64,000 nt of DNA from Candidatus Dormiibacterota bacterium (GTDB lineage: Bacteria; Chloroflexota; Dormibacteria; Aeolococcales; Bog-877): NCBI GenBank assembly GCA_027306885.1, contig DAHUYV010000135.1:508-64507 (forward strand), written 5' to 3'. The translations under genes and the position numbers were made by a program. Positions 15,038-55,756 of this stretch are shown here, one piece after another. Under the pieces are notes generated by a model. The model did not search any database and had not been told where the DNA came from. It saw only the letters and a program-made list of their open reading frames with translations. Positions within the stretch are counted from its first letter, which is position 1. The number at the start of each line of letters is the position of its first letter.

Positions 15038-15116
15038 TGGTGCGCCCAGAGGGATTTGAACCCCCGCAAACCCAGATCCGTAGTCTGGTGCTCTATCCGG
15101 GCTGAGCTATGGGCGC
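15038..15116 (-). tRNA. tRNA-Arg (anticodon ACG)
   Basis: Cloverleaf on the minus strand: GCGCCCA acceptor, loop CTACGGA, TTCAAAT T-loop, CCA encoded. Confidence 0.8.
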
Positions 15117-24379: not shown

Positions 24380-26086
24380 GTGCTCTCCCTGGAACATCTC
24401 CCCGCCCTGGCGCTGCTGGCCCTGGCCGCTGCCGCGCTGGCCGCCGGAGTCCTGGGCGGCCTGCTCCCGCAGCGCGCGGCCATCGCGGGCCGGGTCCTGG
24501 TCCGCCTTGGCCTGCTCGCGACCCTGGGGATCCTGGTGGACTTGGTGGCCGTCCTGCAGCCGGCAGGTTCGGTCGCGGTGGTGCTCTGGCGCATCGCCCC
24601 CACTCTCCCGGTCGAGCTCCAGGTTGACGTCGCGGGAGCGGCGGTGGCGATCGCCGCGACCACGGCCGCTCTGCTGGTCAGCCTCTCTGGACGCGATGGC
24701 GCTCTGGCATCGGCCGCCATCGGGGTCGCGGCGTTGGGCGCAATCCTGGCCAGCCTCTCCGGCGGTCTGCTCAGCCTGTACATCGGCCTGCAGCTCTCGG
24801 CGGTGGGCGGCATCGGGCTCAGCTACGCCCGCTCGCCCCGGGCGCCCAGCGGGCGGATGGTGGTCGCGGCCGTGGCCGACCAGGCGGTCACCCTGTTGTG
24901 GCTGGGGGCGGTGGTCGGGCTGAACCGGCAGACCGGCACGATGCTGTTCTCCGGGATCCCCACCGCCGCCGTCACCCTGCCCCTGGCCGGAATCCTCCTG
25001 ATCCCCGGGGTGGTGCGCCTGGTGGGTGCGGGGCTGGTGCCGGACGCGGCCAGCTCGGCCGGAACCGCCCATGCCCTGGACCTCGCCGACTGGCTGGCGG
25101 TGGTCGCCGTCCCCACCGGGCTCACCGTCCTGCTGCGGGTCCAGCAGCTGTCGGGGGGCACATGGCCCAATCCCGCCCTCGGGACGGGGCTCGACGGCCT
25201 CGCCGTCATCCTCGGCCTGGGGGCTGCGCTGCTGGTGGTGCGCGGCGGCACGGGCGCTGGCCTCCGCCCCCTGCTCCTGGTGTCCGGAGCCATGGTGTTG
25301 CTCGGCTTCGGCGCCAACTCCGCCCCCGGCACCGGCCTGGCGGTGGCGGCCGCCCTCTTCCTCGAGCTTGGCGTGCTGGTGGCCCCGCGGCTCCTGATCG
25401 CCGCCCCGTCCACCTCAGCCGAACGCCCTCTGCCCGCCTGGGGGGGCCAGGCGGCGCTGGTCGCCGCCACCGCACCGCTGTCGCTGGGGGTGACGGTGGC
25501 GGTGGTCGGCATCGCCCTCGCCCTGGCGGCCGGCCCCGGGGCCGGCCTGTTGCCCGGGCTGGGCTACGGCGTGTCTCTGGCGGTCCTGGCCCTGGCGTGG
25601 GCCCGGCTGCGTCGGGTACGGGTCCAGCCGCTGCCCTGGCCCCTCGCCCTGCCGGCGCTCGGGCTGGCGCTGGCCGCGGCTCTGCCCGGCGGCGTGCTCG
25701 CTTGGGTCGCGGCCCCGATCGCCAACCCCGGCGGGGCCGGGCTGCTCCCACTCACCACCCCCGATCCGCTCTCCGTCCAACTTCCCGGTCTGCTCTGGCC
25801 AGCTGGCTACCTGGCCGTCATCGTTGTGCTCCTCGGGAGTGGGCTGTGGGCGTTCAACGTGATCTTCGACCGGCCCCCACCCGAATTCGAGGCGGTGGTG
25901 CCGGCCTCCCCCCCGGCCGCGGCGATCGGCTGGGTTCGAGGGGCCAGGGCATTCAGGGTGACCCTCAGGACTGCCCGCGCCGTCCGGCTGGGCCTGGGGA
26001 TCTCCAGCCGGGAGCTCGCCGAGCGCCCGGTCTGGATGTGGCTGGCGGCGACCCTGACGGTCGCCTGGCTGCTGGTCCAGCGGTGA
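24380..26086 (+). CDS. large polytopic membrane protein (568 aa), weak NuoN/antiporter-like N-terminal resemblance
   Basis: At least 12 hydrophobic helices; LSLYIGLQLSAVGGIGL resembles NuoN LYVGLELLSL; strong GC3 bias. Confidence 0.55.
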   Translation: MLSLEHLPALALLALAAAALAAGVLGGLLPQRAAIAGRVLVRLGLLATLGILVDLVAVLQPAGSVAVVLWRIAPTLPVELQVDVAGAAVAIAATTAALLVSLSGRDGALASAAIGVAALGAILASLSGGLLSLYIGLQLSAVGGIGLSYARSPRAPSGRMVVAAVADQAVTLLWLGAVVGLNRQTGTMLFSGIPTAAVTLPLAGILLIPGVVRLVGAGLVPDAASSAGTAHALDLADWLAVVAVPTGLTVLLRVQQLSGGTWPNPALGTGLDGLAVILGLGAALLVVRGGTGAGLRPLLLVSGAMVLLGFGANSAPGTGLAVAAALFLELGVLVAPRLLIAAPSTSAERPLPAWGGQAALVAATAPLSLGVTVAVVGIALALAAGPGAGLLPGLGYGVSLAVLALAWARLRRVRVQPLPWPLALPALGLALAAALPGGVLAWVAAPIANPGGAGLLPLTTPDPLSVQLPGLLWPAGYLAVIVVLLGSGLWAFNVIFDRPPPEFEAVVPASPPAAAIGWVRGARAFRVTLRTARAVRLGLGISSRELAERPVWMWLAATLTVAWLLVQR

Positions 26087-26691
26087 TCGGGGCTTCGCTG
26101 CTGGCGGCGGGCGGCTTCGTGGCGGCCGCGGTGGCCCTCCTGGCCAGCGGGCCGCGGGGGTTCTGGCTGAGTGCTGTGGCGCTGGGCCTGGGCTTCGGCG
26201 GCGTCGCATTCCTCGCTGGGGGCCTGGCATCCCTGGCGGTCCCAGCCCTGGTCGGCCTGGTTTGCGCGCTGATGATCGGGTTGGGGGGGCGGGCCGAGCG
26301 GCTGACTTCACTGCGCTGGCTGCTGGGCAGCGCGCCCACCGTCGGCCGACCGCGCCTGTTCGGGCAGCTCAGCCTGCGTCTCCTGTTGGGGCTGGGCGGC
26401 CTTCTGGCTGCCCGCCTGCTCTCCGGCCACCTCGGCGCTGGGACGGTGAGCACCCAGGGCCCGGCCTTCGCCTGCCTCTTCGCCTGGGAGGTTGGCGTGA
26501 TCCGGTTGGGGACCGGGCGCGGCCCCGGCGACCTCGCCCTGGGGTCCCTGGCGATCGGCATGGGAGCCGGCGCCTTCATCCTCCTCGACTCGGGCGGGAC
26601 GGCGTGGCCGGCGGCGGCGCTGGCCGCCGGTGTCCCCGCCCTCGCCCTGGGGCTGCTCGCCCACACCGTGCCGTGGGAGGTCGGCGGTTGA
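26083..26691 (+). CDS. membrane protein (about 202 aa), operon member
   Basis: GTG start overlaps the previous stop (GTGA); hydrophobic throughout. Confidence 0.5.
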   Translation: MIGASLLAAGGFVAAAVALLASGPRGFWLSAVALGLGFGGVAFLAGGLASLAVPALVGLVCALMIGLGGRAERLTSLRWLLGSAPTVGRPRLFGQLSLRLLLGLGGLLAARLLSGHLGAGTVSTQGPAFACLFAWEVGVIRLGTGRGPGDLALGSLAIGMGAGAFILLDSGGTAWPAAALAAGVPALALGLLAHTVPWEVGG

Positions 26692-27932
26692 ATCCCGCGC
26701 TGATCGCCTCCTGCCTGGTCCCGATCCCGCTGGCGGTGGCGATCTGGCGCTTGGCGGCGGGCCCGGGCCCGAGGCTCTGGGCCGGCCTCGCCATCGCGGC
26801 GGCGGCGATCGCGGTGCTGGTGGTGAGCAGTCCGCTGCCGGCCGGGCACTTCCGGACCCTGGTGGACCTGGACGTGGGCTCGTTGGCCGCCACCCGGCTG
26901 GTGGTGGGAGTGGTCCTGGGAGGGCTGGCGGCTCACCTTGTGGAGACCGTGGTGGGCCGCCCATCGGGCTCGGGGCTCGCCGCCACCACGGTGCTGCTGG
27001 CCGCCCCGGCGCTCCTGGTGGCGACCAGCACGGGGTTGGTCACGATCGCCATCGGCTGCGGGCTGCTCCTGGGGATCGTCTGGGCGCGCTGGACCCGGGT
27101 GGCCGGGCCCCAGCTTCCGGTGCGCAGCCTGGCCCGCGAGACGGTCCTGGCCGTCGGGGCGGTTCTGGCCGCAGCGGCCCTGACCCCATCTGTGGAGTCG
27201 GGTTCGGCGCCGGGGGTGATGGTCGCGATCCTCCTCGCCGCGGCCGTCGCCAGCCTCATGGGGGTGGTCCCCTTCTCGATCCTGCCGGAGGCGGCGCGGC
27301 GGGTGGGTCCCGCCGAAGCCGCTCTCTGGCGGGTCTGGGTGCTGCCGGTGGGAGCGCTGCTCGGGCTCCGACTCGTTGCCGCCACGCCCCGGCCGGTCGG
27401 GGTGCCGCTGCAGGAGCTCCTCATCGCCCTCGGGGTGGCATCGGCCATCATCTGGGGGGCTCACTCCATAATCGCCGACCCCGAGGCCCGGTACTGGAGT
27501 TCCCTGGCCGCCGACTGCGGGCTGATGGCGGTGGCGGTGGGCCTGGGAAGCCCGACCGCGGTGGCGGCGCTCCTCCTTCTCCTCATCACCCATTGGCTCG
27601 CCGGTTCCGTCCTCGGCGAGAACACCGGGCGGCGTTCGCAGCTCCTCGCCTGGGTCGGAGTGTCCGGGACCCCGCCGTTCGGTGGCTTCACCGGCCGGTT
27701 GCTGCTGGTGCTCGCCGCCGCCCCGATCAGTGGGGCGCTGGTCGGGCTGCTCCTGCTGGCGAGCGGGCTCCAGCTGGCGGGGGCAGCGGTGGGCATGCGC
27801 GCCGCAGCCGGGACCGCGGCGCCCGGGGCTCTGCGTCGAGAGCTGCCGGCTCTGGCGGTGGCGATCGCGGCTCTGGCCCTGGGGGTGCTCCCCCAGCAGG
27901 CGCTGAGCTGGGTCTTTGGGGTGCACCTGTGA
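26688..27932 (+). CDS. polytopic membrane protein (about 414 aa), operon member
   Basis: TTG start overlaps the previous stop (TTGA); multiple transmembrane segments. Confidence 0.5.
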   Translation: MNPALIASCLVPIPLAVAIWRLAAGPGPRLWAGLAIAAAAIAVLVVSSPLPAGHFRTLVDLDVGSLAATRLVVGVVLGGLAAHLVETVVGRPSGSGLAATTVLLAAPALLVATSTGLVTIAIGCGLLLGIVWARWTRVAGPQLPVRSLARETVLAVGAVLAAAALTPSVESGSAPGVMVAILLAAAVASLMGVVPFSILPEAARRVGPAEAALWRVWVLPVGALLGLRLVAATPRPVGVPLQELLIALGVASAIIWGAHSIIADPEARYWSSLAADCGLMAVAVGLGSPTAVAALLLLLITHWLAGSVLGENTGRRSQLLAWVGVSGTPPFGGFTGRLLLVLAAAPISGALVGLLLLASGLQLAGAAVGMRAAAGTAAPGALRRELPALAVAIAALALGVLPQQALSWVFGVHL

Positions 27933-38689: not shown

Positions 38690-38765
38690 TGGTGGAGCGA
38701 AGGGGACTTGAACCCCTGACCTCTGCCGTGCGAAAGCAGCGCTCTGCCAGCTGAGCTATCGCCCC
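38690..38765 (-). tRNA. tRNA-Ala (anticodon CGC)
   Basis: GGGGCGA acceptor with a G3:U70 pair; anticodon loop TTCGCAC; CCA encoded. Confidence 0.85.
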
Positions 38766-42784: not shown

Positions 42785-42859
42785 TGGTGGAGCCGGCGGG
42801 AATTGAACCCGCGACCTCTTCCATGCCAAGGAAGCGCGCTGCCGCTGCGCCACGGCCCC
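42785..42859 (-). tRNA. tRNA-Ala (anticodon GGC)
   Basis: GGGGCCG acceptor with G3:U70; anticodon loop TTGGCAT; CCA encoded. Confidence 0.85.
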
Positions 42860-45251: not shown

Positions 45252-45484
45252 CATAAATACAGCGACCCGGCGATTGCCGGGCCGCTGCGGGGAGGGAGGA
45301 ATAGGGCCGTCGTTCCGGCGGTCGAATCGCCGGTGCCGGGGGCCTCCCGGCCGACAACTGAGACTCTGACAGCCGCGACTGGGGGCCCACTGTGTCCGAC
45401 CTTAGAGTTTGCTTGGAGCTCGGCGGCCGTGGAGGCTCAGTCGAAGCTCAGGAAACTCCCAGTTTGGGGGTGCAGACTCCGGCC

Positions 45485-46177
45485 ATGGAGCCGCGCACGA
45501 AGGTGCTGGTGGTTGACGACGAGCTGAACCTGGTGGAGTTGGTGTCAACCGCCCTGCGGTATGCCGACTTCGAGACCGAGACCGCTCGGAGCGGACGGGA
45601 GGCGCTCGAGAAGGTCAAGCAGTTCCAACCCCATCTGGTGATCCTAGATGTGATGCTCCCGGACCAGGACGGCTTCGAGGTCGCCCGGACGATGGCGGCC
45701 TCCGGGCTCACCGTGCCGATCCTCTTCCTCACCGCCCGCGACGCGACCGAGGACAAGGTCCGGGGCCTCACGGTGGGAGGGGACGACTACGTCACCAAGC
45801 CCTTCAGCCTGGACGAGCTGATCGCCCGGGTGCGGGTCATCCTGCGTCGCAGCGGCCATCGCCAGGAGAGCCACAATGTTCTGACGTTCGCTGACCTGGA
45901 GATGGACGAGGACCTGCGGGAGGTCCGCCGCGCGGAGCAGGTGATCGAGCTCACGGCCACCGAGTACCGCCTCCTGCGCTACCTGCTGATCAATGCCCGG
46001 CGGGTCCTGACCCGCGCGCAGATCCTGGACCACGTCTGGAGCTACGACTTTGGTGGCGACGCCGGCATCCTGGAGACCTACATCAGCTATCTGCGCAAGA
46101 AGGTGGACGCCGTCGACCCGCCCCTGATCCACACGGTGCGGGGAATGGGTTACGTGCTGCGGCTGCCTCGGGGCTGA
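45485..46177 (+). CDS. OmpR-family response regulator
   Basis: Receiver domain (VLVVDDE...DVMLPDQDG) plus winged-helix domain (TEYRLLRYL). Confidence 0.9.
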   Translation: MEPRTKVLVVDDELNLVELVSTALRYADFETETARSGREALEKVKQFQPHLVILDVMLPDQDGFEVARTMAASGLTVPILFLTARDATEDKVRGLTVGGDDYVTKPFSLDELIARVRVILRRSGHRQESHNVLTFADLEMDEDLREVRRAEQVIELTATEYRLLRYLLINARRVLTRAQILDHVWSYDFGGDAGILETYISYLRKKVDAVDPPLIHTVRGMGYVLRLPRG

Positions 46178-46179
46178 TC

Positions 46180-47658
46180 GTGTCTCTGCGGTTGCGGCTG
46201 GTCCTGGCCCTCCTCGCTCTGGTGGTGGCGGGGCTGGTGGCCACCGACACGGTCACCTACGTCGCCCTGCAGTCCTCGCTGTGGACTCGACTCGATGAGG
46301 ACCTGCTGCAGTCGGTGGACGCGGCGCGGACCTGTGTCCTCGATGAGCTGATCAACAGCAACTGCCCCACCAGCACCGCCCTGCCCAACGGCAGCTACGC
46401 TGCCTTCCTTGGCCCCGGGGGCGCGCGTGAGCCGGTGGTCTGGGGGGTAAGCCAATCGACCCCCCAGCCGGTCCTCCCCGACTCTGTCACCTCCGGCACC
46501 GCGACCGGCACCCCCGTCTTCTTCACCGCCACCGCCAACCATGGGGGAGGGGACTTTCGCGGCCTGGTGGTCCTGGTGTCCGTGCCCGGCGGCGTACAGC
46601 CCTTCGTGGTGGCGATGCCACTGTCGTCGGTGGAGAGCACCCTCCAGCAGCTGAGGTTGCTGGAGATGCTGGTGGGGGGCGTGGTGCTGGTGGCGCTGGG
46701 ACTGGGGGCGTGGTGGCTGGTTGACCTCGGACTGCGTCCCCTCCGCCGGATCCGGGACACCGCCCAGAAGATCGCCGCTGGAGACCTCAGCCAACGGGTG
46801 AAGGGGGTGGACGAGCGCACCGAGGTCGGCCAGCTGGCGATCAGCCTCAACGAGATGCTCGCCCAGATCGAGCAGGCATTCGCCGAGCGCAGCGCATCCG
46901 AGGCCAGGCTGAGACGGTTCGCCGCCGACGCGTCCCACGAGCTGCGCACCCCGCTCAGCTCGATCCGGGGCTACGCGGAGCTCTTTCGCCGGGGGGCGCG
47001 CTCCAACCCGGAGGACCTGGAGAAGGCCATGAGCCGGATCGAGAGCGAGGCCATCCGCATGGGGGTCCTGGTCGAGGACCTGCTGCTGCTGGCCCGGCTG
47101 GACCAGGGCCGCCCCCTTGAGCTTCACTCCGTGGACCTCTCCCAGCTGGCGGTCGACGCCGCCGCTGACCAATCCGCGGCCGACCGCCGCCACGCGATCT
47201 CAGTAGCGGCGCCCGATCCGGTGCTGGTCGACGGGGACGAGGCACGCCTTCGGCAGGTGATCGGCAACCTGGTGCGCAACGCCGTGGTCCACACCCCACA
47301 GGGGACCGGGCTCGAGATCATCACTCGGCTCGAGGGGGACGCGGGGGTCGTCGAGGTGGTGGACCATGGTCCGGGGATCCCGGACGAGGTCGCGGCCCGG
47401 GTCTTCGAGCGCTTCTACCGCGTCGACCGGGCCCGCGGGCGGGCCACGGGCGGCGCCGGCCTTGGCCTGTCGATCGTGAGCGCCATCGTGGCGGCCCACC
47501 AGGGCCGGGTCTCCCTGCGGCCGACCCCCGGCGGGGGGGCGACCTTCATCGTCGAGATCCCGGTGAAGGGGCGGGAGCGAAACCCCTTGGCGGTGCTGGA
47601 TGAGGAGCCAGAGCTGGCCGCCGCCGAGGCGCCCTCAGACCCCAGCGCCGCCCGCTGA
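46180..47658 (+). CDS. sensor histidine kinase (HAMP-HisKA-HATPase)
   Basis: H-box ASHELRTPLSSIRGYAEL; G-boxes GGAGLGLSIV; two transmembrane segments. Confidence 0.9.
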   Translation: MSLRLRLVLALLALVVAGLVATDTVTYVALQSSLWTRLDEDLLQSVDAARTCVLDELINSNCPTSTALPNGSYAAFLGPGGAREPVVWGVSQSTPQPVLPDSVTSGTATGTPVFFTATANHGGGDFRGLVVLVSVPGGVQPFVVAMPLSSVESTLQQLRLLEMLVGGVVLVALGLGAWWLVDLGLRPLRRIRDTAQKIAAGDLSQRVKGVDERTEVGQLAISLNEMLAQIEQAFAERSASEARLRRFAADASHELRTPLSSIRGYAELFRRGARSNPEDLEKAMSRIESEAIRMGVLVEDLLLLARLDQGRPLELHSVDLSQLAVDAAADQSAADRRHAISVAAPDPVLVDGDEARLRQVIGNLVRNAVVHTPQGTGLEIITRLEGDAGVVEVVDHGPGIPDEVAARVFERFYRVDRARGRATGGAGLGLSIVSAIVAAHQGRVSLRPTPGGGATFIVEIPVKGRERNPLAVLDEEPELAAAEAPSDPSAAR

Positions 47659-48621
47659 TCCTCCGGCGGGGCTGCTTTGGACGCCCTGGCCGATGTCAGC
47701 CGCGGCGGCGCCCTTGGTGCCGACGGCCCGGCTCCAGGCGCGCGTCTCACGGATGAGGGAGGTGAGCCCTATGCCCATCACCGCGAACACTACGAGGAAG
47801 AGGGGCAGGCCGATCTGGTCCAGGTTGTGGACCTGGATGCCGGTGGCGAAGCTGAGATTGGCGATCTGGGGGAAGGCCAGCCCGAAGAGTCCGCCGACCA
47901 CGAAGGCGAGACCACCCCAGGTCAGGGTGCGCCCCGCGACGGTCAGCGCCACGTGGCGGACCGCCTCGGGAGGCAGCCCGCGCCGGGAGGCGTACCGGCC
48001 GAAGGCACCCCCCGCCAGCACCTGAACGATGGTGGTGCCGACTCCGAAGAGTGCGCCCGGGACCCAGGCCAGCAGCGGCGAGGGCATCGCCGGGGCCAGG
48101 ACCGTGTAGATGATGATGGCGAATGCCCCGAAGCCCCAGCCGGCGACGAAGCCGTGGACTGCCGGCATCCAGGGCCGGGGGTCCTGGACCCAGTTGGGGG
48201 TGGGAAAGTCCTGCCCCGAGTGGACCAGCTCGGCGTCCTTCTGGAGCCAGGGGATATGGAGGTGGAAATGGAATGGAAGACGGCCCCGGCGCACGATCAT
48301 GAAGCCGGCCCAGGCCATCAGGATGCCCACCACCACGTAGATGGCGTAGTCGGCGCTGCCCAGCGTCAGCACCTTGGTGAACCCGAAGTAGGCAAGTTCA
48401 CTCGCGATCGCCCTCTGGATGGTGAAGGCCAGCGAGAAGGTGAGGCCGGCTCGCAGCCCCTTCTTGGTCGAGTAGCTGCCGATGGCGTAGCTGAAGGTGA
48501 TGGGCCAGGTGTGCTCGTCCGGGGTGATCCCGTGCACCATCCCCAGCAGCAACGCGGTGACGAAGATCGCCAGCCCGGTGACGTGGACCGGGTCCCAGAG
48601 GTTGATGACAGCGCCGATCAC
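47635..48621 (-). CDS. putative metal-cation transporter (NicO/NiCoT- or HupE/UreJ-like)
   Basis: Polytopic membrane protein with a TM2-proximal HGITPDEH (H-x4-D-E-H) motif. Its GTG start overlaps the Fur-family stop (GTGA), giving a co-directional regulator-transporter pair. Confidence 0.5.
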   Translation of the reverse strand: MIGAVINLWDPVHVTGLAIFVTALLLGMVHGITPDEHTWPITFSYAIGSYSTKKGLRAGLTFSLAFTIQRAIASELAYFGFTKVLTLGSADYAIYVVVGILMAWAGFMIVRRGRLPFHFHLHIPWLQKDAELVHSGQDFPTPNWVQDPRPWMPAVHGFVAGWGFGAFAIIIYTVLAPAMPSPLLAWVPGALFGVGTTIVQVLAGGAFGRYASRRGLPPEAVRHVALTVAGRTLTWGGLAFVVGGLFGLAFPQIANLSFATGIQVHNLDQIGLPLFLVVFAVMGIGLTSLIRETRAWSRAVGTKGAAAADIGQGVQSSPAGGSAGGAGV

Positions 48622-49046
48622 GAGGGCACCGCCGCCGGCGAGGCCGGTTTGGCCGGCAGCGCGGCGCGCTCCTGGCACGAAGGACAGGTGCCGCTCAGCA
48701 CCAGGCGGTGATCTGTGATCAGAAAGCCGGTGGTGCTCTCCAGGCCTGCCAGAGCGGCGCTGAGCGACCCGCAGGGCACCGGAGTCACCTCACCGCAGAT
48801 CCGGCAGCGCAGGTGATCGTGGTGCTCGTCGCGCATCTCCACGTGGGTGCGTCCGTCGTCGAGCTCCACCCGGCGCACCACCCCGTCGGTCTCCAGCTTG
48901 GCGGTCGCCCGGAAGACACTCGAGAAGTTGGCCTGCAACCCTCTGACGGCAAGCGCCTGGCGCAACTCCTCCAGGGTCCAGGCGTGGTGGCCCCGGGCGA
49001 CCATCAACTCGCGGAGCGCTCCGGCGATCTTCGGCTTTCTGCCCAT
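48618..49046 (-). CDS. Fur-family metalloregulator (Nur/Zur-like)
   Basis: HHDHLRCRICG...CGS...CPSC metal sites; wHTH N-terminus. Confidence 0.85.
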   Translation of the reverse strand: MGRKPKIAGALRELMVARGHHAWTLEELRQALAVRGLQANFSSVFRATAKLETDGVVRRVELDDGRTHVEMRDEHHDHLRCRICGEVTPVPCGSLSAALAGLESTTGFLITDHRLVLSGTCPSCQERAALPAKPASPAAVPS

Positions 49047-49070
49047 GCCCCCATGATACATAAAGCAAGC

Positions 49071-49095
49071 CGTTTGCGCAACAGGTTTGCGTAAA
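49071..49095 (+). promoter_or_regulatory. candidate Fur-family (Nur-like) operator: TTGCGCAA-N5-TTGCGTAA
   Basis: Lies in the AT-richer 114-nt divergent intergenic region between the Fur-family gene and the ApbE cluster. It resembles the Nur box tTGCaa-N5-tTGCAA. Confidence 0.35.
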
Positions 49096-49160
49096 CATCT
49101 CCAAGGAAGCTCCCAGGAGGATTTAGGGACGATTCCAGTTTCCTGTGGCAACATGGCGGG

Positions 49161-49448
49161 GTGAGGGACAGTTCCGACTTCACCAGCCGCCACCGCACCG
49201 AGGGCGAGTCGCTCCTTAGGAGGCTCACGGTCTGGGTCAGCCTCGGAGCGATGGTGGCCACCGCGGCCGTGGCGGCTGCGGTAGCCCACGCTCTGCCCGG
49301 CCGGTCGACCTCCTCCAGCTCCGCTGCTGCCTCCAGCGCTCCGACCACCGCCTCCGGGTCGACCTCCGCCCCGTCGTCGGGAGCGTCCCAGGGGACCGCG
49401 CCGGCTCCCGCCACGCCGGCCCCGGTGGTGACCTCCGGCGGCTCCTGA
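49161..49448 (+). CDS. small single-pass membrane protein with S/T/A/P-rich extracytoplasmic tail
   Basis: GTG start; one transmembrane helix (LTVWVSLGAMVATAAVAAAVAHAL); the tail contains SSGAS. Confidence 0.4.
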   Translation: MRDSSDFTSRHRTEGESLLRRLTVWVSLGAMVATAAVAAAVAHALPGRSTSSSSAAASSAPTTASGSTSAPSSGASQGTAPAPATPAPVVTSGGS

Positions 49449-49449
49449 G

Positions 49450-50433
49450 GTGGAGTCGGAATGGCGGATGGCGACCCTGCCCGGCGGGTTCGAGGTCGCC
49501 TCCCGTCCGGCGCTGGGAACCACAGCCCAGGTGGTGCTGCACGGGAGACCCGTTGGGCCCGCGGCGCTCCGGGCGATGGACCGCCTGCTCGACGATCTTG
49601 ACCTGGAGGCCAGCCGCTTCCGGCAGGACTCGGAGCTGGCCCGGGTGAACGCCTCGTCCAGCCCCGAACTCGAGGTCAGCCCCGGGTTCGCAGCTCTTCT
49701 GGAGCCGGCCCTCGAGTGGGCCAGGCGCACCCACGGGCTGCTCGATCCCACGGTGGGGCGGGCGGTGGTGAATGCCGGCTACACAGGCGACTTCGCCGGG
49801 CTGGAGCGGGACCAGTCGGGGCCGGCACCGGCCAAATCTCCCGCGCCTGGGTGGTGGCAGGTGGAGCTCTCCGGCACCCACCTGCGCCGGCCGCCCGGAG
49901 TGGTCCTGGACCTGGGCTCGACCAGCAAGGCCCAGGTGGCGGACCTGGCCGCCGCAGAGCTTCTCGCCCTCACCGGTGGAGCGGTCCTGGTCAGCCTCGG
50001 GGGCGACATCGCGACCGCCGGTGCGGTTCCGCCCGGAGGGTGGGTGGTGCGAGTCGGCGATGACCACCAGGGGCGGATGGGAGATGAGGGTCAGACCGTG
50101 GTCCTCACCGCGCGGGCGCTGGCGACATCGTCGCGGGCCGTGCGCCAATGGCGGCGCGGTGGCGAGCCGATGCACCACCTCATCGACCCGCGTCGTGGAC
50201 TGCCGGCGGATGGCCCGTGGCGCACCGTGAGTGTCGCGGCTGCAAGCTGCCTTGAGGCCAACGCGCTCGCCACCGCGGCCCTGGCCGGCGGAGAGGCCGG
50301 CAGGGCGCTCCTTGAGGGGTCGGGCGCCGCCGCCCGGCTGGTGACCACCGACGGCCGGGCGGTCCACCTCGGAGGCTGGACCCCAGCGGGAGAGGAGCTC
50401 CCTCTCAGGGTCGTGCCCGGGGCGGCTGCCTGA
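49450..50433 (+). CDS. FAD:protein FMN transferase (ApbE family)
   Basis: ApbE motifs (SRFRQDSELARVN; GSTSKAQVADLAA). Confidence 0.85.
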   Translation: MESEWRMATLPGGFEVASRPALGTTAQVVLHGRPVGPAALRAMDRLLDDLDLEASRFRQDSELARVNASSSPELEVSPGFAALLEPALEWARRTHGLLDPTVGRAVVNAGYTGDFAGLERDQSGPAPAKSPAPGWWQVELSGTHLRRPPGVVLDLGSTSKAQVADLAAAELLALTGGAVLVSLGGDIATAGAVPPGGWVVRVGDDHQGRMGDEGQTVVLTARALATSSRAVRQWRRGGEPMHHLIDPRRGLPADGPWRTVSVAAASCLEANALATAALAGGEAGRALLEGSGAAARLVTTDGRAVHLGGWTPAGEELPLRVVPGAAA

Positions 50434-51560
50434 TGCCGACCGTCGGCGCCGTCGACCCGATGACCCTCTGGTATCTGGCGCGCGCCAGCGGCCTTGTCCT
50501 ACTCGGCCTCCTCACCCTCAACCTGGCTCTCGGCATCGCCATTCAGGGGGGCTGGCATCCCCGCGGGTGGCCCCGGTTCGTGGTGCAGGGATTGCACCGC
50601 AACCTCGCCCTCACGGCTGTGGTCCTGCTGGTCATCCATGTGGTGACGATCGAGCTTGACCCCTTCGTCCCGGTGGGCTGGTGGGCGGTCCTCGTGCCCT
50701 TTGTGAGTCCGTACCGGCCGCTGTGGCTCGGCCTCGGGACCCTGAGCCTTGACCTTCTCGCTGCGGTGATCGTCACCAGCCTCCTGCGGGCCCACCTTCG
50801 CCCCCGCCTTTGGCGGGCGGTGCACTGGCTGGCCTACCTCTCGTGGCCGGTGGCGCTCCTGCACTCGGTGGGCACCGGCACCGACACCCGGCTGGGGGCG
50901 ATCTTCGTCTACGAGATGGCCTGCGTTGGGCTTCTGGCGGCGACGGTGATCTTCCGCCTGGCCCGCGCCGCGCATCCCGCGCCGGTGGCCCGCGGCCTGC
51001 TCATGGTGGCCGCGGCTGCCGCGCCGCTCGCCGCCCTCGCGTGGTCGTCGTCGGGCCCACTGCAGGCGGGCTGGGCCAAGAAGGCCGGCACCCCGACCGC
51101 TGTTCTGGCCTCCGGCGGCACGGGAACCGGGGCTCCGAGCGGAGCCCCGAGCGGGGGTGCGGGTCCGGCTGAGACTGCGTTCACCGCCTCCTTCAGCGGC
51201 AGCGCCATCTCCGGGGGCGGGGGACAGACCCTGACCATCACCGGGCGGGTGCAGGGCGGCGCCGGCGGCTCCCTGCAGGTGGTGCTGCAGACCCAGCCCC
51301 TTTCGGCGGGTGGCCTCGCGGTGTCGTCCGGAGCCGCCACCTACAAGCCGGGCAATCGCGCCCTCGCCTACTCCGGGACCCTGGTGGGGATGCGTGGCGC
51401 CGGCCTGGAGTTCAGCCTGCAGGCTGCCGGCGTACCCGGCGTGGCCGCTGAGCTGGTCCTGTCGGGACCGGTTCCCTCGTCCACGGTGGCCGGGCAGCTG
51501 TACTTCGGGACCGCGCCGCCGACCTTCTCCGGTGGCGATGACGGGGGCGGGGGCAATTGA
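50433..51560 (+). CDS. ferric-reductase-like (bis-heme b) transmembrane protein with Gly/Ser-rich C-terminal domain
   Basis: Two His pairs in transmembrane helices (LHRNL...VIHVV; VHWLAYL...LLHSV) typical of FRD/MsrQ-type heme-binding domains; start overlaps the ApbE stop. Confidence 0.7.
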   Translation: MPTVGAVDPMTLWYLARASGLVLLGLLTLNLALGIAIQGGWHPRGWPRFVVQGLHRNLALTAVVLLVIHVVTIELDPFVPVGWWAVLVPFVSPYRPLWLGLGTLSLDLLAAVIVTSLLRAHLRPRLWRAVHWLAYLSWPVALLHSVGTGTDTRLGAIFVYEMACVGLLAATVIFRLARAAHPAPVARGLLMVAAAAAPLAALAWSSSGPLQAGWAKKAGTPTAVLASGGTGTGAPSGAPSGGAGPAETAFTASFSGSAISGGGGQTLTITGRVQGGAGGSLQVVLQTQPLSAGGLAVSSGAATYKPGNRALAYSGTLVGMRGAGLEFSLQAAGVPGVAAELVLSGPVPSSTVAGQLYFGTAPPTFSGGDDGGGGN

Positions 51561-52864
51561 GCATCGCCACCCGTGATTTGACCAGGGCCTTCGCGCGGCC
51601 GCGCTCCGGACTCGGGCCGCAGCGCCTTCTGGCCGGCCCCAAGCTGGGCTCCGGAGAGAGCTGGGACGAGCACTGCGCGCGGCTTGATGGCCCGATCTCC
51701 GACCGCCTGAGACGGGTGCCCCCGGACCGGCTAATCGAGGCGGTCCGTCGCTCCGGGCTGCGAGGCCGAGGCGGGGGAGGCTTCCCCGCCGGCGACAAGC
51801 TGCTGGCGGCTCGCCGCCACGGCTCCGGCGCGGTGGTCGTCGGCAACGGCAGCGAGACCGAGCCGGCCGCCGCCAAGGACGAGGTCCTGCTCCGACTGCG
51901 GCCGCACCTGGTGCTGGATGGGCTGGAGGTGGCCGCCCGCGCCCTGGGAGCTCGCGGGGCTTTCCTCGTGGCCCCGTCCCCGGCCGCCTGGGACAGCGTC
52001 ACGGAAGCGCTCGCCGAGCGCGCCGATCGGCACGTGCCGGTGCAGCTCATCGAGGGGCCCCGGAACTTCGTGGGCGGTGAGGAGACGGCGGTCATCCGCT
52101 GGATCGAAGGAGGGCCGGCGCTGCCGCGCTTCCAGCCGCCTCGGGTGGTCGACCGCGGGTGGCGGGGCCTGCCCACCGTGGTTCAGAACGTCGAGACCCT
52201 GGCCCACCTGGGGCTGATCGCCCGCCTCGGGCCGGAATGGTTTGCGGCGGTGGGCACCGAGGCCGAGCCCGGGACCATGCTGATCACCCTCAGCGGCGCT
52301 GTCGAGCGCCCCGGCGTGTATGAGGTCGCCATCGGGCTGGAACTCACCAAGCTCCTCGGCGCGGCCGGTCCCGACCCCAAGGCGGTGGCGCTGCTGGTGG
52401 GAGGCTACTTTGGGTCGTGGCTGCGGGCGCCGCAGATCCCCGGTGCCCGCCTCTCCCGGGCGGGGCTCGCGCCGTTGGCGGCGTCGCCGGGGGCGGGGGT
52501 CATGCACCTGCTCCCACCGGGCAGCTGCGGGCTGCGCGAGTCCCATCGGGTCGTGGACTGGCTGGCCCAGCAGGGGGCCCGCCAGTGTGGTCCCTGCGCG
52601 CACGGGCTGCCCGCCCTGGCGGAGGCGATGGGCCGGCTGGCCGGCCACCGGGGGCAGGCTTCGGAGGCGGGAGCCCAATTGCGGCGCTGGAGTGACCAGA
52701 TCGAGGGCCGGGGGGCCTGCCGCCACCCTGACGGCGCGGTCAACCTGGTGCGCTCGACACTGGCCGCCTTTGGAGACGAGATCGAGCTCCATGAGCGGGG
52801 CGGCTGCAGCGGCACTCGGCTCTCCAACCTCCCACTGCCGCCGTGGGAGCTTCGCCCGGCTTGA
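51557..52864 (+). CDS. NuoF-like NAD(P)H-binding FMN/Fe-S flavoprotein (complex I 51-kDa subunit family)
   Basis: GRGGGGFPAGDK NADH/FMN motif; SLBB region; C-terminal CGPCAHG...C Fe-S motif; TTGA overlap with the upstream gene. Confidence 0.8.
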   Translation: MSIATRDLTRAFARPRSGLGPQRLLAGPKLGSGESWDEHCARLDGPISDRLRRVPPDRLIEAVRRSGLRGRGGGGFPAGDKLLAARRHGSGAVVVGNGSETEPAAAKDEVLLRLRPHLVLDGLEVAARALGARGAFLVAPSPAAWDSVTEALAERADRHVPVQLIEGPRNFVGGEETAVIRWIEGGPALPRFQPPRVVDRGWRGLPTVVQNVETLAHLGLIARLGPEWFAAVGTEAEPGTMLITLSGAVERPGVYEVAIGLELTKLLGAAGPDPKAVALLVGGYFGSWLRAPQIPGARLSRAGLAPLAASPGAGVMHLLPPGSCGLRESHRVVDWLAQQGARQCGPCAHGLPALAEAMGRLAGHRGQASEAGAQLRRWSDQIEGRGACRHPDGAVNLVRSTLAAFGDEIELHERGGCSGTRLSNLPLPPWELRPA

Positions 52865-53106
52865 GCGAGCAGTATCTTCACGTCGATCCCACGCTCTGTG
52901 TGGGCCACCGGATCTGCGCCGAGCTGCTCCCCGAGCTGATCGGACTCGACGACTGGGGCTACCCGATCATCTCGCCGGACCCGATCCCCCGCGTCCTGCG
53001 CCGCCGAGCTCGCGGCACCAGGACGGCGTGCCCGGCCCTCGCCCTCGCCCTCGACCACAGCCCGGGCCGCAAGGCGCGCCGCGACACCGCGGTAGCGGCC
53101 CCCTGA
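52861..53106 (+). CDS. small [3Fe-4S]-type ferredoxin
   Basis: CVGHRIC (CxxHxxC)...CP motif; TTG start overlaps the NuoF-like stop. Confidence 0.7.
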   Translation: MSEQYLHVDPTLCVGHRICAELLPELIGLDDWGYPIISPDPIPRVLRRRARGTRTACPALALALDHSPGRKARRDTAVAAP

Positions 53107-53146: not shown

Positions 53147-55756
53147 GTGCCTTCAAGCTCCGCTCTCGACCAGCCGGGGGAGGGATCGGAGTCGTGGCGG
53201 CTCTGGGGCCCCTACCTGGCGCTGCGGCAGTGGGGGACGGTCCGGGAGGACTACAGCGCCTCCGGAGACGCCTGGGGTTACTTCCCCTTCGACCACGCCC
53301 GCCTGCGCGCCTACCGCTGGGGCGAGGACGGCCTCCTCGGTGTCAGCGACCAGCGCCAGCTGATCGGCCTCGGCCTCGGGCTCTGGAACGGGCAGGACGA
53401 GATCCTGAAGGAGCGGTTCTTCGGACTCACCAACGCCGAGGGCAATCACGGGGAGGACGTCAAGGAGTACTGGCACTACCTGGACGCACTTCCGGACTCA
53501 CGGTACCTGCGGGCGGTCTACCGCTATCCCATGGCCGCCTTCCCATACCGAGAGCTGCGCGAGCGCAACGCGGTGTCCGGACCCGAGCTCAAGCTCTTGG
53601 ATCTCGGTTACTTCCAGGACGACCGCTACTTCGATGTCCAGGTGGAGTACGCCAAGGCGGCGCCGACCTTCATCGCCTGCCGGATCACGGTGACCAACCG
53701 GAGCTCAGAGCCCGCCGAGCTCCACCTCCTGGCTCAGGCCTGGCTCCGCAACACCTGGGCCTGGAATGGCACCGCGCCGCCGGGGCTGGCGTTGCGGGAG
53801 GGCCGGCTCTGGCTGGCCCATCCTGACCTTCCGGGCTACCGGTTGGCGGCCGATCCCGGCGCGACCTGGCTCTTCTGCGACAACGAGACCGACACCGCCC
53901 GGCTGTACGGCATCGCTCCTCGCAGCCGATACCCGAAGGGGGCGATCGGCGACGCGGTCGTGAGTGGTGACCTCACCCTCTGCAACCCGGCCCAGACCGG
54001 GACCAAGGCGGCCGCCCGGTACCGGCTCTCACTTGACCCAGGGGAGTCCAAGGTGGTGCGCTGGGTCTGGTCCGACCACGACGGCCCCGAGCCGGCGGAC
54101 GCCGACCGGGTCTGCGACGCCGGTCGGGCCGCGGCCGACTCCTATCACCAGCGGCTGGCTCCGGCCGCCAGCGACCCCGACGAGAGGTTGATCCTCCGGC
54201 AGGGGATGGCGGGCCTGATCTGGAGCCAGCAGTACTACGAGTACGACGTGGATCGCTGGTTGGACGGCGACCCCGCCTCCCCGCCGCCGCCCGCGCAGCG
54301 CCAGTCCGGGCGCAACGCCGGGTGGCGCGGCCTGCACGCCGCCGACGTCATCGTGATGCCGGACAGCTGGGAGTACCCCTGGTTCGCCTCTTGGGACCTG
54401 GCCTTCCACGCCCTGGCGCTGCAGCCTTTCGACCCCGGGCTGGCCAAGGAGCAGGTGATGCTCCTGCTTGAGCCGCGGTACCTACGTGAGGATGGGCAGC
54501 TGCCCGCCTACGAGTGGAGCTTTGGGGACTCGAACCCGCCGGTCCACGCCGCCGCGGTGTGGCAGCTGTACGTCCGGGAGCGGAACCGCACCGGTCGCCC
54601 CGACCGGGCCTTCCTGGAGCGCGCCTTCCTCGCTCTGCTATTCAACTACGGCTGGTGGGTGAACCGGCGCGATGTGACCGCCCATGACATCTTCTCCGGG
54701 GGGTTCCTCGGGCTGGACAACATCTCGGCGGTGGACCGGAGCCACCTACCCCTGGGGGCGGAGATCTGGGAGGTCGACGCCACCGCCTGGGTCGGGATGT
54801 TCGCGGTGAAGATGTTCCGGATCGCCGCCGAGCTGGCGATCGAGGAGCCCCAGTACGAGGACATGGCGGTGCGCTTCTTCACCCACTTCGCCCACATCGC
54901 CGCGGCGTTGAACGGGGAGGCGGGTCAGCTCGGGCTCTGGGACGCGAAGGAGGGCTTCTACTACGACCGCCTGCGGCTGGCCGACGGGCGCAGCGAGGTC
55001 CTGCGGGTTCGTAGCCTGGTGGGCCTGCTGCCGCTGGCGGCGACCGAGCTGGTGCACCAGCACACGCTGGAGCGGCTTCCCCGCCTGGCCGAGCACCTGC
55101 AGGCAGCCGAGCAGGCGCGCTCCTTCCACGTCCAGGGGGCCGGGTCCGATCCATACGCGGTGCTCTCCCTTCTGGCTCCGGACCGCCTCCATCAGCTGCT
55201 GGACCGGCTGCTGGACCCCCAGGAGTTCCTCTCCGACTACGGGCTGCGCTCGGTCTCCCGGGCCCATCTGGAGGACCCGTTCCAGTCCCAGCTGGTGCCC
55301 GGCATGCCCCCGGTCCGCTACGAGCCCGGCGCCGCAGATGAGCGGATCATGGGCGGCAACTCCAACTGGCGGGGGCCGGTGTGGCTGCCCACCGGCTACC
55401 TACTGATCCAGGCCCTTCGGCTGCTCGGGGTGGGACTGGGTGACAGCTTCACCCACGAGTTCCCGGCTCCGGGGGGTGACGCCCTGACCCTGACGCAGGT
55501 GGCCGACCGGCTGGCGGAGAGAACGGTCGCCATCTTCCGGCGCGGCCCCGACGGGCGCCGCCCGGTCTTCGGTGACAACCACAAGTTCCAGACCGACCCG
55601 AGGTGGCGTGACCTCCTGCTCTTCCATGAGTACTTTCACGGCGACGACGGAAGCGGCCTGGGAGCGTCCCACCAGACCGGGTGGACGGCGTTGGTGGCAC
55701 TGCTGGTGGAGGAGTTGGGCCGCCCCTGGTCCCCTCCCAGGCCTCCCTCGGGGTGA
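53147..55756 (+). CDS. GH63-family glycoside hydrolase (mannosylglycerate/glucosylglycerate hydrolase-like)
   Basis: 869 aa with an (alpha/alpha)6-barrel GH63 pattern (EYPWFASWDLAF; GDDGSGLGASHQTGW). Confidence 0.8.
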   Translation: MPSSSALDQPGEGSESWRLWGPYLALRQWGTVREDYSASGDAWGYFPFDHARLRAYRWGEDGLLGVSDQRQLIGLGLGLWNGQDEILKERFFGLTNAEGNHGEDVKEYWHYLDALPDSRYLRAVYRYPMAAFPYRELRERNAVSGPELKLLDLGYFQDDRYFDVQVEYAKAAPTFIACRITVTNRSSEPAELHLLAQAWLRNTWAWNGTAPPGLALREGRLWLAHPDLPGYRLAADPGATWLFCDNETDTARLYGIAPRSRYPKGAIGDAVVSGDLTLCNPAQTGTKAAARYRLSLDPGESKVVRWVWSDHDGPEPADADRVCDAGRAAADSYHQRLAPAASDPDERLILRQGMAGLIWSQQYYEYDVDRWLDGDPASPPPPAQRQSGRNAGWRGLHAADVIVMPDSWEYPWFASWDLAFHALALQPFDPGLAKEQVMLLLEPRYLREDGQLPAYEWSFGDSNPPVHAAAVWQLYVRERNRTGRPDRAFLERAFLALLFNYGWWVNRRDVTAHDIFSGGFLGLDNISAVDRSHLPLGAEIWEVDATAWVGMFAVKMFRIAAELAIEEPQYEDMAVRFFTHFAHIAAALNGEAGQLGLWDAKEGFYYDRLRLADGRSEVLRVRSLVGLLPLAATELVHQHTLERLPRLAEHLQAAEQARSFHVQGAGSDPYAVLSLLAPDRLHQLLDRLLDPQEFLSDYGLRSVSRAHLEDPFQSQLVPGMPPVRYEPGAADERIMGGNSNWRGPVWLPTGYLLIQALRLLGVGLGDSFTHEFPAPGGDALTLTQVADRLAERTVAIFRRGPDGRRPVFGDNHKFQTDPRWRDLLLFHEYFHGDDGSGLGASHQTGWTALVALLVEELGRPWSPPRPPSG

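Follow-up and report, generated by a model that had tools for sequence, protein, structure and literature searches.

The 64,000-nucleotide stretch analysed here (the window; contig DAHUYV010000135.1 of assembly GCA_027306885.1, Candidatus Dormiibacterota bacterium) carries at positions 49161-53106 of its plus strand an operon of five genes. Conservation and domain content support the view that they form a real conserved module for flavinylation-associated trans-membrane electron transfer. They code, in this order, for a small protein, an ApbE-family flavin transferase, an MsrQ-like di-heme membrane protein, a NuoF-like flavoprotein and a 3Fe-4S-type ferredoxin. The operon is a NuoF-like subtype of the MsrQ-like flavinylation systems of Meheust et al. 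(2021), so the general class to which it belongs was already known. A Fur-family regulator, a putative permease and an operator-like box lie immediately upstream (47635-49094). The first-pass annotation of this DNA, made by a model, had joined them with the operon in one metal-regulated cluster (47635-53106). We find it rather more probable that the region is best explained by two entities, a self-contained electron-export operon and a separate mobile Fur metal-homeostasis unit. The window has ~71% G+C overall, and protein searches returned sequences labelled Candidatus Dormibacterota as the nearest relatives of its proteins.

Gene Organization of the Operon

All seven open reading frames (ORFs) named by the first-pass annotation were found at the coordinates it gave, and its assignments of ApbE, a NuoF-type flavoprotein, a ferredoxin and a Fur-family protein are backed by Pfam. 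The features of the operon and of the two-component system that precedes it are:

45392..46177, plus strand: OmpR-family response regulator (Pfam Response_reg and Trans_reg_C)
46180..47658, plus strand: sensor histidine kinase with two transmembrane (TM) helices, an extracytoplasmic sensor, HAMP, HisKA and HATPase (Pfam)
49161..49448, plus strand: small protein, 95 aa; an equivalent ORF lies upstream of the ApbE/MsrQ-like genes in ~77 of 84 loci
49434..49445, plus strand: C-terminal SGGS of the small protein, candidate ApbE flavinylation site (last Ser), from conservation over 69 non-redundant loci
49450..50433, plus strand: ApbE-family FAD:protein FMN transferase, no signal peptide (PF02424, E=5e-46)
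50433..51560, plus strand: MsrQ-like di-heme membrane protein, ferric-reductase domain (PF01794, four invariant His)
51180..51506, plus strand: eight-stranded up-down beta-barrel of the MsrQ-like protein, residues ~250-358, predicted extracytoplasmic (structure prediction)
51557..52864, plus strand: stand-alone NuoF-like NAD(P)H/FMN/Fe-S flavoprotein (PF01512, Complex1_51K; SLBB; PF10589, NADH_4Fe-4S)
52843..53106, plus strand: single-cluster ferredoxin (CxxHxxC...CP, 3Fe-4S type; Fer4_15, E=3.5e-7)

Start/stop overlaps had been described throughout the five genes. Three of the four junctions do overlap, and the one between the small protein and ApbE is a 1-nt gap. The ApbE stop and the MsrQ-like start share TGATG, and the MsrQ-like and NuoF-like genes meet in TTGA. 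The ferredoxin gene overlaps the NuoF-like gene by 22 nt when read from its GTG start, or by 4 nt if an alternative TTG start is used.

Conservation and Distribution

A search with the MsrQ-like protein returned 662 relatives, mostly of equal length and aligned over the C-terminal region as well. When one genome per species was scanned with a pattern, at least 577 MsrQ-like relatives were confirmed. Among the matches listed, the relatives belong mainly to Actinomycetota (Thermoleophilia/Solirubrobacterales, Gaiellales, Acidimicrobiia, Streptosporangiaceae, two Streptomyces and Actinocrinis), together with several Dormibacterota, a single Limnocylindria and a single Acidobacteria. Culturable carriers include Streptomyces gibsoniae DSM 41699 (L069) and Actinocrinis puniceicyclus DSM 45618 (L032).

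Synteny was counted by tblastn of the window proteins against 83 fetched related loci. The MsrQ-like, NuoF-like and ferredoxin genes keep fixed offsets in 74-75 of them (the NuoF-like gene is conserved in 75 and is followed by the ferredoxin gene in 74), and apbE is found directly upstream of the MsrQ-like gene in 60. An OmpR-type regulator and a kinase are encoded within 7 kb in 54 of the 83 loci, mostly directly upstream on the same strand and sometimes divergently or downstream; full-length kinase orthologs immediately precede the small ORF in many loci. All-against-all clustering of the neighbouring ORFs identified no further recurrent family, terminal reductases and transporters included. 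Given this synteny and the lack of any other recurrent neighbour family, the conserved unit is composed of the two-component system, the small ORF, ApbE, the MsrQ-like protein, the NuoF-like protein and the ferredoxin. Reading the five genes as a split, flavinylation-dependent trans-membrane electron-transfer module, as was initially proposed, agrees with these data: their homologs are co-localised elsewhere, and a NuoF-like protein plus ferredoxin donating to an MsrQ-like protein fits models already in the literature (PMC8238504). A second MsrQ-like paralog was seen near the operon in two loci (L017, L020), and a second ApbE ~3.7 kb downstream in L056, while L013 has an additional NuoF-like gene upstream, on the opposite strand.

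The Small Protein and Its C-Terminal Motif

In the window the small protein is made of an Arg-rich N-terminus, a single hydrophobic helix, an AxA-LPGR motif and a disordered linker rich in Ala, Pro, Ser and Thr that ends with PVVTSGGS. The G+C content at its third codon positions (0.88, versus 0.84-0.90 in the neighbouring genes) is of the coding type. Its relatives share this plan. The N-terminal segment is 20-45 aa long, strongly basic and Arg-rich, with the motif RD-x-[GA]-L-x-R-[LIV]-x-R-x-T-(R)-(W). Next come one Ala/Gly-rich hydrophobic helix, often A-x-A and LPG[RH], and a disordered tail of 37-127 residues (median 67) of which 73% are Ala, Pro, Ser, Gly or Thr.

An ORF ending in [ST]-G-[GA]-[ST]-stop is located immediately upstream of apbE in ~77 of 84 loci, and directly upstream of the MsrQ-like gene in loci without apbE. 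In 69 non-redundant copies the four final residues are S (64) or T (5), G (69), G (62), A (5) or S (2), and S (65) or T (4). The tetrapeptide is mostly preceded by P-V-V-[VTS], and the exact ending SGAS is found in Streptomyces and a few others. As a background, such an ending is seen in only 90 of the 16332 stop-to-stop segments read from these loci in all frames, and ~77 of the 90 are the small ORF itself. The internal SSGAS that the first-pass annotation had singled out as a flavinylation site is an unconserved piece of the linker, the conserved element being the last four residues, SGGS.

The canonical ApbE target motif is D-x-x-[ST]-G-A-[ST], with FMN attached to the last residue; seven residues suffice and terminal tags perform best (PMC12052999). 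Exchange of the Asp for Ala had minor effects only in mutational work cited in that review, and a flavinylated FMN reductase has its modification site on a C-terminal extension (PMC11334425). The small-protein C-terminus (x-V-V-[VTS]-[ST]-G-[GA]-[ST]) retains an invariant [ST]G.[ST] core, lacks the Asp and has Gly for Ala in 62 of 69 copies. The two sites that the first-pass annotation had proposed are unconserved, and the conserved candidate is the Asp-less [ST]G[GA][ST] at this terminus. The terminal SGGS overlaps the canonical motif, occupies a favoured terminal position and lacks an Asp whose exchange had minor effects (PMC12052999), which makes it the best candidate for the ApbE substrate. 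As to other targets, no FMN_bind domain (PF04205) was detected in the cluster proteins or in 40 MsrQ-like homologs (E up to 0.1).

Public gene calls often miss the small ORF: it is uncalled in L001 (6691-6993) and L003 (6734-7072) and is annotated elsewhere as "hypothetical". The window's own small protein is absent from ~15 billion public protein sequences, which hold only five "hypothetical" relatives. Surveys relying on called genes would miss this protein because its ORF is usually uncalled.

Several other ideas on the small protein were discarded. About 70% of the N-terminal regions contain Arg-Arg, as for Tat export, but the residues that follow misfit S-R-R-x-F-L-K and ~30% have no Arg-Arg at all, so the Tat route was kept as a minority idea only. 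A programmed fusion of the small protein to ApbE, serving as its membrane anchor, is ruled out by the variable frame relation of the two genes (1-nt spacer here, ATGA overlap in L003) and by the persistence of the small ORF where ApbE is absent. A C-terminal serine modification like that of siderophore-microcins was set aside because no such modifying enzyme was identified among the cluster genes.

ApbE

The catalytic His-His pair of ApbE (H242/H243) is invariant and aligns with the conserved His of solved ApbEs, so that the enzyme looks active; a Phe stands at the position matching Tyr60(Ec)/Asn55(Tp). Here and in most loci the ORF begins 3-22 residues ahead of the first conserved motif, xLGT (~20 in the window). 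Manual inspection assigned neither a signal peptide nor a lipobox to the protein because too few residues precede this first domain motif.

Two database entries, P0100 and P0104, are ApbE-MsrQ-like fusions from long-read metagenome-assembled genomes. Both lack the ApbE N-terminus and P0100 contains a frameshift-like stretch, for which reasons they were treated as assembly or gene-calling artefacts. Genuine fusions of this kind would put ApbE on the side of the membrane where the MsrQ-like N-terminus lies.

The MsrQ-Like Membrane Protein and Its Beta-Barrel

The initial description of a ferric-reductase-like bis-heme protein holds. PF01794 (Ferric_reduct) matches the window protein just under its cut-off (E=9e-6, 26.1 bits; cut-off 28), as well as 36 of 40 homologs. 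All 82 relatives compared keep H55, H69, H131 and H144, a set of four that fits two hemes. The protein is laid out as six TM helices, a conserved juxtamembrane segment (GPLQxGWAxRAGTP), a Gly/Ser linker and a C-terminal beta-barrel. Loops 1-2, 3-4 and 5-6 are Arg-rich. Against what we take to be the E. coli MsrQ sequence, helix 4 (WRAVHW...LLHS) aligns with MsrQ helix 5 and helix 1 with helix 2. From the Arg-rich loops and this register with MsrQ TM2-6, both termini would be outside, the five core helices ending inside and the sixth carrying the C-terminal region out.

What had been described as only a Gly/Ser-rich tail is a linker plus a predicted eight-stranded barrel of ligand-binding type, modelled confidently (predicted local distance difference test score, pLDDT, above 90). 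Its fold likenesses include allene-oxide-cyclase-like and dirigent barrels. Comparison of the barrel sequence with those of the PDB gave nothing meaningful, and a search of 1.84 billion representatives gave 15 weak matches and no new architectures. The SSGAAT proposed earlier as a second flavinylation site lies in a barrel strand (residue 298) and varies freely in 40 MsrQ-like homologs. The possibility that the barrel is a divergent FMN_bind domain was rejected on account of its all-beta eight-stranded fold, the lack of a PF04205 match and the unconserved SSGAAT, FMN_bind domains having an alpha/beta fold and a conserved SGAT loop. Its possible roles are to dock the flavin tail, to bind a small redox molecule or to act as a spacer.

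The NuoF-Like Flavoprotein and the Ferredoxin

About 360 residues of the NuoF-like protein align with solved NuoF/Nqo1/HydB chains in the PDB (E ~1e-45). By its shared domains the protein is NuoF-like and not NuoF, since it scores far below the cut-off of the NuoF equivalog model TIGR01959 (197.6 bits versus 558.65), the first Cys of the canonical complex-I N3 motif CxxCxxC is replaced by Ala, and neither NuoE nor NuoG is encoded next to it. Residues C324, C344, C347 and C388 are kept by 69 of 70 sequences, C324 being 20 residues upstream of the N3 motif, and C417 is also kept (51 of 54). This pattern suggests a re-wired set of Fe-S ligands, plausibly a four-Cys cluster with one shifted ligand. 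In the ferredoxin, C19, C25 and C63 (followed by Pro) are invariant and H22 is found in 64 of 73 sequences; CxxHxxC...CP is the usual pattern of 3Fe-4S ferredoxins.

The Two-Component System

The kinase has its best NCBIfam match in TIGR01386 (cztS_silS_copS, "heavy metal sensor kinase"), over the full length with 216.9 bits for a cut-off of 292.6. The NCBIfam matches of the regulator (PhoB, MtrA, cztR/silR/copR (CopR/CusR) and HprR) are likewise all below cut-off. The sensor domain of the kinase has no conserved Cys, His or Met that would hint at a ligand. Beside the operon, the conserved regulatory neighbour is a CusRS/HprRS-like two-component system. The CusRS-like HprSR system of E. coli adjoins msrPQ and induces it on exposure to reactive chlorine species and copper (PMC9302797; 10.1101/2021.09.09.459708), and the likeness to hprRS-msrPQ suggests that the operon described here responds to redox or metal stress in the envelope.

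The Fur/Permease Unit

Between the kinase gene and the operon the minus strand encodes two proteins, preceded by an operator-like box:

47635..48621, minus strand: polytopic membrane protein of the DsbD_2/UreH-like (LysE-fold) family, putative divalent-metal permease (motifs; weak PF13386 matches in homologs)
48618..49046, minus strand: Fur-family metalloregulator (PF01475, E=7e-14)
49074..49094, no strand assigned: operator-like 8-5-8 box, TTGCGCAA-caggt-TTGCGTAA (read directly)

The Fur stop and the membrane-protein start overlap in GTGA (48618-48621), in line with the translational coupling noticed at first pass. The membrane protein had been called a metal transporter with an H-x4-D-E-H motif. 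The motif is present (HGITPDEH) and is invariant in 55 homologs, as is HGFVAGWGFG. The protein itself matched no Pfam or NCBIfam model, and 32 of the 55 homologs match PF13386 (DsbD_2, UreH-like TM family) weakly, so the term "transporter" is used here mainly on the strength of the coupled Fur gene. The unit seems common in genomes from acidic or metal-rich settings, Sulfobacillus, Acidiphilium and Vulcanimicrobiaceae being among the matches. The convergent 3' ends of the kinase (plus) and membrane-protein (minus) genes overlap by 24 nt (47635-47658); in L001 a gap of 24 nt separates the two, and the membrane protein is 17 residues shorter.

The regulator was first described as Nur/Zur-like. 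It is a Fur-family protein with two conserved CxxC pairs (C81, C84, C121, C124) and a conserved HHDH motif, and its closest solved structures are Fur and Zur, with the Nur structure 3eyy behind (E=5.7e-6). The Nur part of the label was dropped: the equivalents of Nur His70/His72 read R-R-V-E (own alignment versus PMC2691836), the Nur structure ranks lower and the box has another geometry. Its half-sites, TTGCGCAA (49074-49081) and TTGCGTAA (49087-49094), form a palindrome with a Nur-like core and 5-bp spacing, as reported at first, in an 8-5-8 arrangement and not the 6-5-6 of a Nur box.

Within an intergenic region of 114 nt, the box is upstream of both divergent genes, at 28 nt from the Fur start and 67 nt from the small-protein start. 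Five copies of a degenerate form, TTnCnCAA-N5-TTGCnT(T)AA, were found in 1.5 Mb of loci, both alphaproteobacterial loci included, and always just upstream of this Fur gene. L004 has a variant, and a box is found in all six Fur/membrane-protein loci. On the basis of this constant position it is predicted to be the operator of the Fur/permease unit. Since the intergenic region is so short, the repressor could also act here on the divergent operon promoter.

Fur, permease and box occur with no ApbE cluster nearby in Acidiphilium-like Alphaproteobacteria (L084, 3533-4876; L085, 3548-4855), whose permease is ~60% and whose orthologous Fur protein is 41-43% identical to those of the window. There too the permease gene comes directly after the Fur gene, and the box has the shared form TTnCGCAA-N5-TTGCnTAA; L086 has the permease and no Fur gene. 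Beside the operon, the Fur and membrane-protein genes were found in three of the 83 loci, the nearest relatives L001, L002 and L004, and not in other Dormibacterota loci (L005-L007, L058). In the window they exactly fill the place that separates the kinase gene from the small ORF; in other lineages these two are direct neighbours. This distribution suggests a horizontally mobile regulator-operator-transporter unit, and the simplest reading of the gene order is that it was inserted between the two-component system and the operon in this Dormibacterota lineage. Metal control as a general property of the operon is not supported by these counts.

Neighbouring Genes and Other Features of the Window

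An 869-aa GH63/MGH1-like glycoside hydrolase is encoded at 53147-55756, 41 nt past the ferredoxin gene. It is probably unrelated to the operon because it keeps this place in the three closest loci only (L001, L002, L004). No riboswitch was found near the operon, the only Rfam matches in the window being three tRNA genes, all on the minus strand (15041-15116, 38693-38765, 42788-42859). Scans for sigma-70 promoters and intrinsic terminators returned no sites. In the segment 24000-28000 the G+C content is 75% and the AT skew is strongly negative (-0.30 to -0.42). It codes for long Ala/Leu/Gly-rich polytopic membrane proteins (e.g., 24380-26086 and 26262-27932), which probably account for this skew.

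Proposed Mechanism and Alternatives

In the arrangement that we favour, the NuoF-like protein (FMN, Fe-S) would oxidise cytoplasmic NAD(P)H and pass electrons through its Fe-S cluster to the ferredoxin. The latter would dock on the cytoplasmic side of the MsrQ-like protein, at its Arg-rich loops. From the inner to the outer one, the two b-type hemes of the MsrQ-like protein would then move electrons across the membrane to a face formed by the conserved juxtamembrane segment and the barrel. There they would reach an FMN esterified by ApbE to the last serine of the small protein. Membrane-anchored or secreted, this protein would use its disordered linker of 37-127 residues as a tethered flavin shuttle towards an acceptor, for which a metal ion, a quinone-like molecule, O2 and an envelope protein are candidates. 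Expression of the operon would normally be tied to the CusRS/HprRS-like system, as hprRS controls msrPQ in E. coli. The Fur-family repressor, the DsbD_2/UreH-like permease and the autoregulatory 8-5-8 box would make a unit of their own, from which a secondary metal control of the divergent promoter may follow. A more specific version is offered tentatively: the small protein might be a natural "flavin tag", receiving FMN on its terminal serine in the cytoplasm before its unstructured tail is exported, the flavin then swinging between the outer heme or barrel and distant acceptors located in the cell wall or beyond it.

Several observations weigh against this model. The Asp usual in ApbE targets is absent from the terminal motif, and Gly mostly stands where Ala would be expected (SGAS in 5 of 69 copies). 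The charge bias that would keep the small-protein N-terminus inside is moderate (+3.4 versus +1.7; N > C in 55 of 69). About 19 fully flanked loci keep the small ORF and have no ApbE within 7 kb, so that flavinylation there requires an ApbE encoded elsewhere in the genome. The barrel side chains are unconserved except for glycines and one Phe, and no cofactor-binding role is indicated by them. No acceptor gene linked to the operon was found in the neighbourhoods. Finally, ApbE has no signal peptide, yet the small-protein tail and the barrel are predicted outside, so either flavinylation precedes export or the topology is wrong. This mismatch is the weakest link of the model and admits three possible readings: the tail is modified and then exported, it stays inside, or it is not a substrate. 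We rank the first of them highest because the barrel is predicted outside and the linker looks extracytoplasmic.

A tail that stays in the cytoplasm would be modified there by the signal-less ApbE. Its FMN would link the NuoF-like protein and the ferredoxin to the inner heme in place of the FAD domain of NOX enzymes, leaving the barrel and outer loops alone to serve the external substrate. The sequence of ApbE is indeed that of a cytoplasmic protein, the charge bias of the small protein is merely moderate, and Klebsiella offers a precedent of a cytoplasmic ApbE acting on a cytoplasmic target (PMC12052999). We nevertheless regard such a location as unlikely: the long (20-45 aa) and strongly basic N-terminus disfavours its own translocation, and the ferredoxin already serves as a cytoplasmic carrier. 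Besides, Ala/Pro/Ser/Thr-rich linkers of 37-127 aa are, as a matter of general knowledge, typical of extracytoplasmic tethers. We hold it quite unlikely that the terminal SGGS is not flavinylated at all and is instead a docking or processing signal, ApbE serving a substrate encoded elsewhere or hydrolysing or delivering flavin for the NuoF-like protein. The [ST]-G-[AG]-[ST] match is invariant and directly beside ApbE in 60 of 83 loci, some lineages have the exact SGAS, and no alternative substrate domain is present in the cluster. The missing Asp and the Gly for Ala would speak for that possibility, together with the ~19 loci without a nearby ApbE and the mismatch between the predicted locations of enzyme and target. 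The first of these is tempered by the minor effects of the Asp-to-Ala exchange in work cited in PMC12052999.

It also seems improbable that 47635-53106 is a single metal-controlled system in which Fur represses both units and extracellular Fe(III) or another metal is reduced by the module so that the adjacent permease can take it up. Such a system would account for the shared 114-nt intergenic region with its box 67 nt from the small-protein start and for the adjacency retained in L001, L002 and L004. Proteins with a ferric-reductase domain are metalloreductases (established for FRE/STEAP), and some MsrQ-like clusters are linked to VIT1 iron transporters by Meheust et al. (PMC8238504). Against it, the adjacency is confined to these 3 of 83 loci, all close relatives, and is missing from L005-L007 and L058, while Fur, permease and box stand alone in other phyla. 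No metal transporter or reductase recurs in the neighbourhoods of the operon, so the reductive acquisition of Fe or Ni put forward initially has no specific support. As for the kinase that accompanies the operon, its likeness is to sensors of Cu/Ag or oxidants and not to those of iron.

Comparison with Known Systems

The MsrQ-like systems of Meheust et al. comprise 1797 apbE-linked clusters, mostly actinobacterial (PMC8238504). For 31 clusters the presumed NAD(P)H donor is the product of a NuoF-like gene, so the composition of the operon is not unprecedented, contrary to the impression given at first pass. A literature search found no experimental work on this NuoF-like subtype, which is more widespread than the published count suggests. 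The operon shares with the systems of Meheust and Huang an apbE beside a gene for a PF01794 di-heme protein (within five genes in the definition, overlapping here), a cytosolic NAD(P)H donor (NuoF-like, PF10589, where other members may have a fused PF00175) and occurrence mainly in Actinomycetota. It differs in that its ApbE has no signal peptide. The published pipeline (PMC8238504) kept only clusters with a predicted signal peptide on ApbE or on an FMN-binding protein. Typical members have an FMN_bind domain (PF04205), sometimes fused to MsrQ, and Huang et al. (2024) modelled such a fusion (PMC11334425). The operon has none: its MsrQ-like protein ends in a beta-barrel and its sole candidate substrate is the small protein with C-terminal SGGS. 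The accessible portions of PMC8238504 and PMC11334425 make no mention of the small protein, the barrel or the two-component link. New elements are the signal-less ApbE, the barrel in place of an FMN_bind domain, the association with a two-component system, and a conserved, mostly unannotated small protein whose sole conserved feature predicted to be extracytoplasmic is a terminal flavinylation-like tetrapeptide.

Like E. coli MsrPQ/HprSR (YedVW)/Fre, the operon combines an MsrQ-type di-heme protein with a cytoplasmic flavin/NAD(P)H enzyme and adjoins a CusRS-like two-component system; control by that system is a feature of E. coli (PMC9302797; 10.1101/2021.09.09.459708), and the kinase and regulator found here score below the HprR/CusS family cut-offs. 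Unlike MsrPQ, it has no molybdoenzyme MsrP, its donor is a NuoF-like protein plus ferredoxin instead of Fre, and it adds a further TM helix with the barrel, ApbE and the small protein. The MsrQ-like protein resembles NOX, FRE and STEAP in its two His pairs on alternate helices, 13-14 residues apart, its two hemes and the passage of NAD(P)H-derived electrons across the membrane. The dehydrogenase, a fused FAD/NADPH domain in those enzymes, is split here into the NuoF-like protein and the ferredoxin. Compared with NOX, the first helix is missing and the C-terminus is predicted outside. As for the small protein, its nearest likeness is the engineered "Flavin-tag" (Tong et al. 2021, reviewed in PMC12052999), in which a short terminal [ST]-G-A-[ST] peptide suffices for FMN attachment. 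It is an artificial sequence with the Asp retained (DxxSGAT), whereas the small-protein motif is natural, Asp-less, mostly SGGS and borne on a disordered linker predicted to be membrane-tethered.

The Fur protein and its box recall Nur of Streptomyces coelicolor and its box tTGCaa-N5-ttGCAA in family, palindromic TTGC..AA half-site and 5-bp spacer (PMC2691836). They differ from them in the 8-nt half-sites (8-5-8 instead of 6-5-6) and in the absence of His70 and His72, which together with His126 form the Ni site of Nur (PMC2691836). Through the weak PF13386 matches of its homologs the permease resembles the DsbD_2/UreH-like proteins of the LysE fold, which also serves electron transfer in RnfA/E and NqrD/E, though the window permease itself is below PF13386 detection. 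Its His/Asp-rich intramembrane motifs resemble those of Ni/Co permeases. Unlike NiCoT/NicO proteins, it matches neither PF03824 nor any other transporter model, and its H-x4-D-E-H is similar, not identical, to HX4DH.

Significance

Extracytoplasmic electron transfer based on flavinylation is a young field, and the actinobacterial MsrQ-like branch within it is large. Published surveys that filter on signal peptides and on called genes would hide the subtype described here, its signal-less ApbE and its likely substrate. The Fur gene, the permease and the box form a clean regulator-operator-transporter triple. The concept of what ApbE can target would be wider with a substrate that is no more than a terminal tetrapeptide borne by a disordered tether. 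If the flavin-tag model is true, it would define a new class of ApbE substrates devoid of a flavin-binding domain and a new way of delivering electrons outside the cytoplasm. Hundreds of Actinomycetota and Dormibacterota species from soil would have it, and annotation would overlook it since its gene is usually uncalled. The module is a candidate for the extracellular reduction of metals, oxygen or humics in abundant uncultured soil lineages such as the Dormibacterota.

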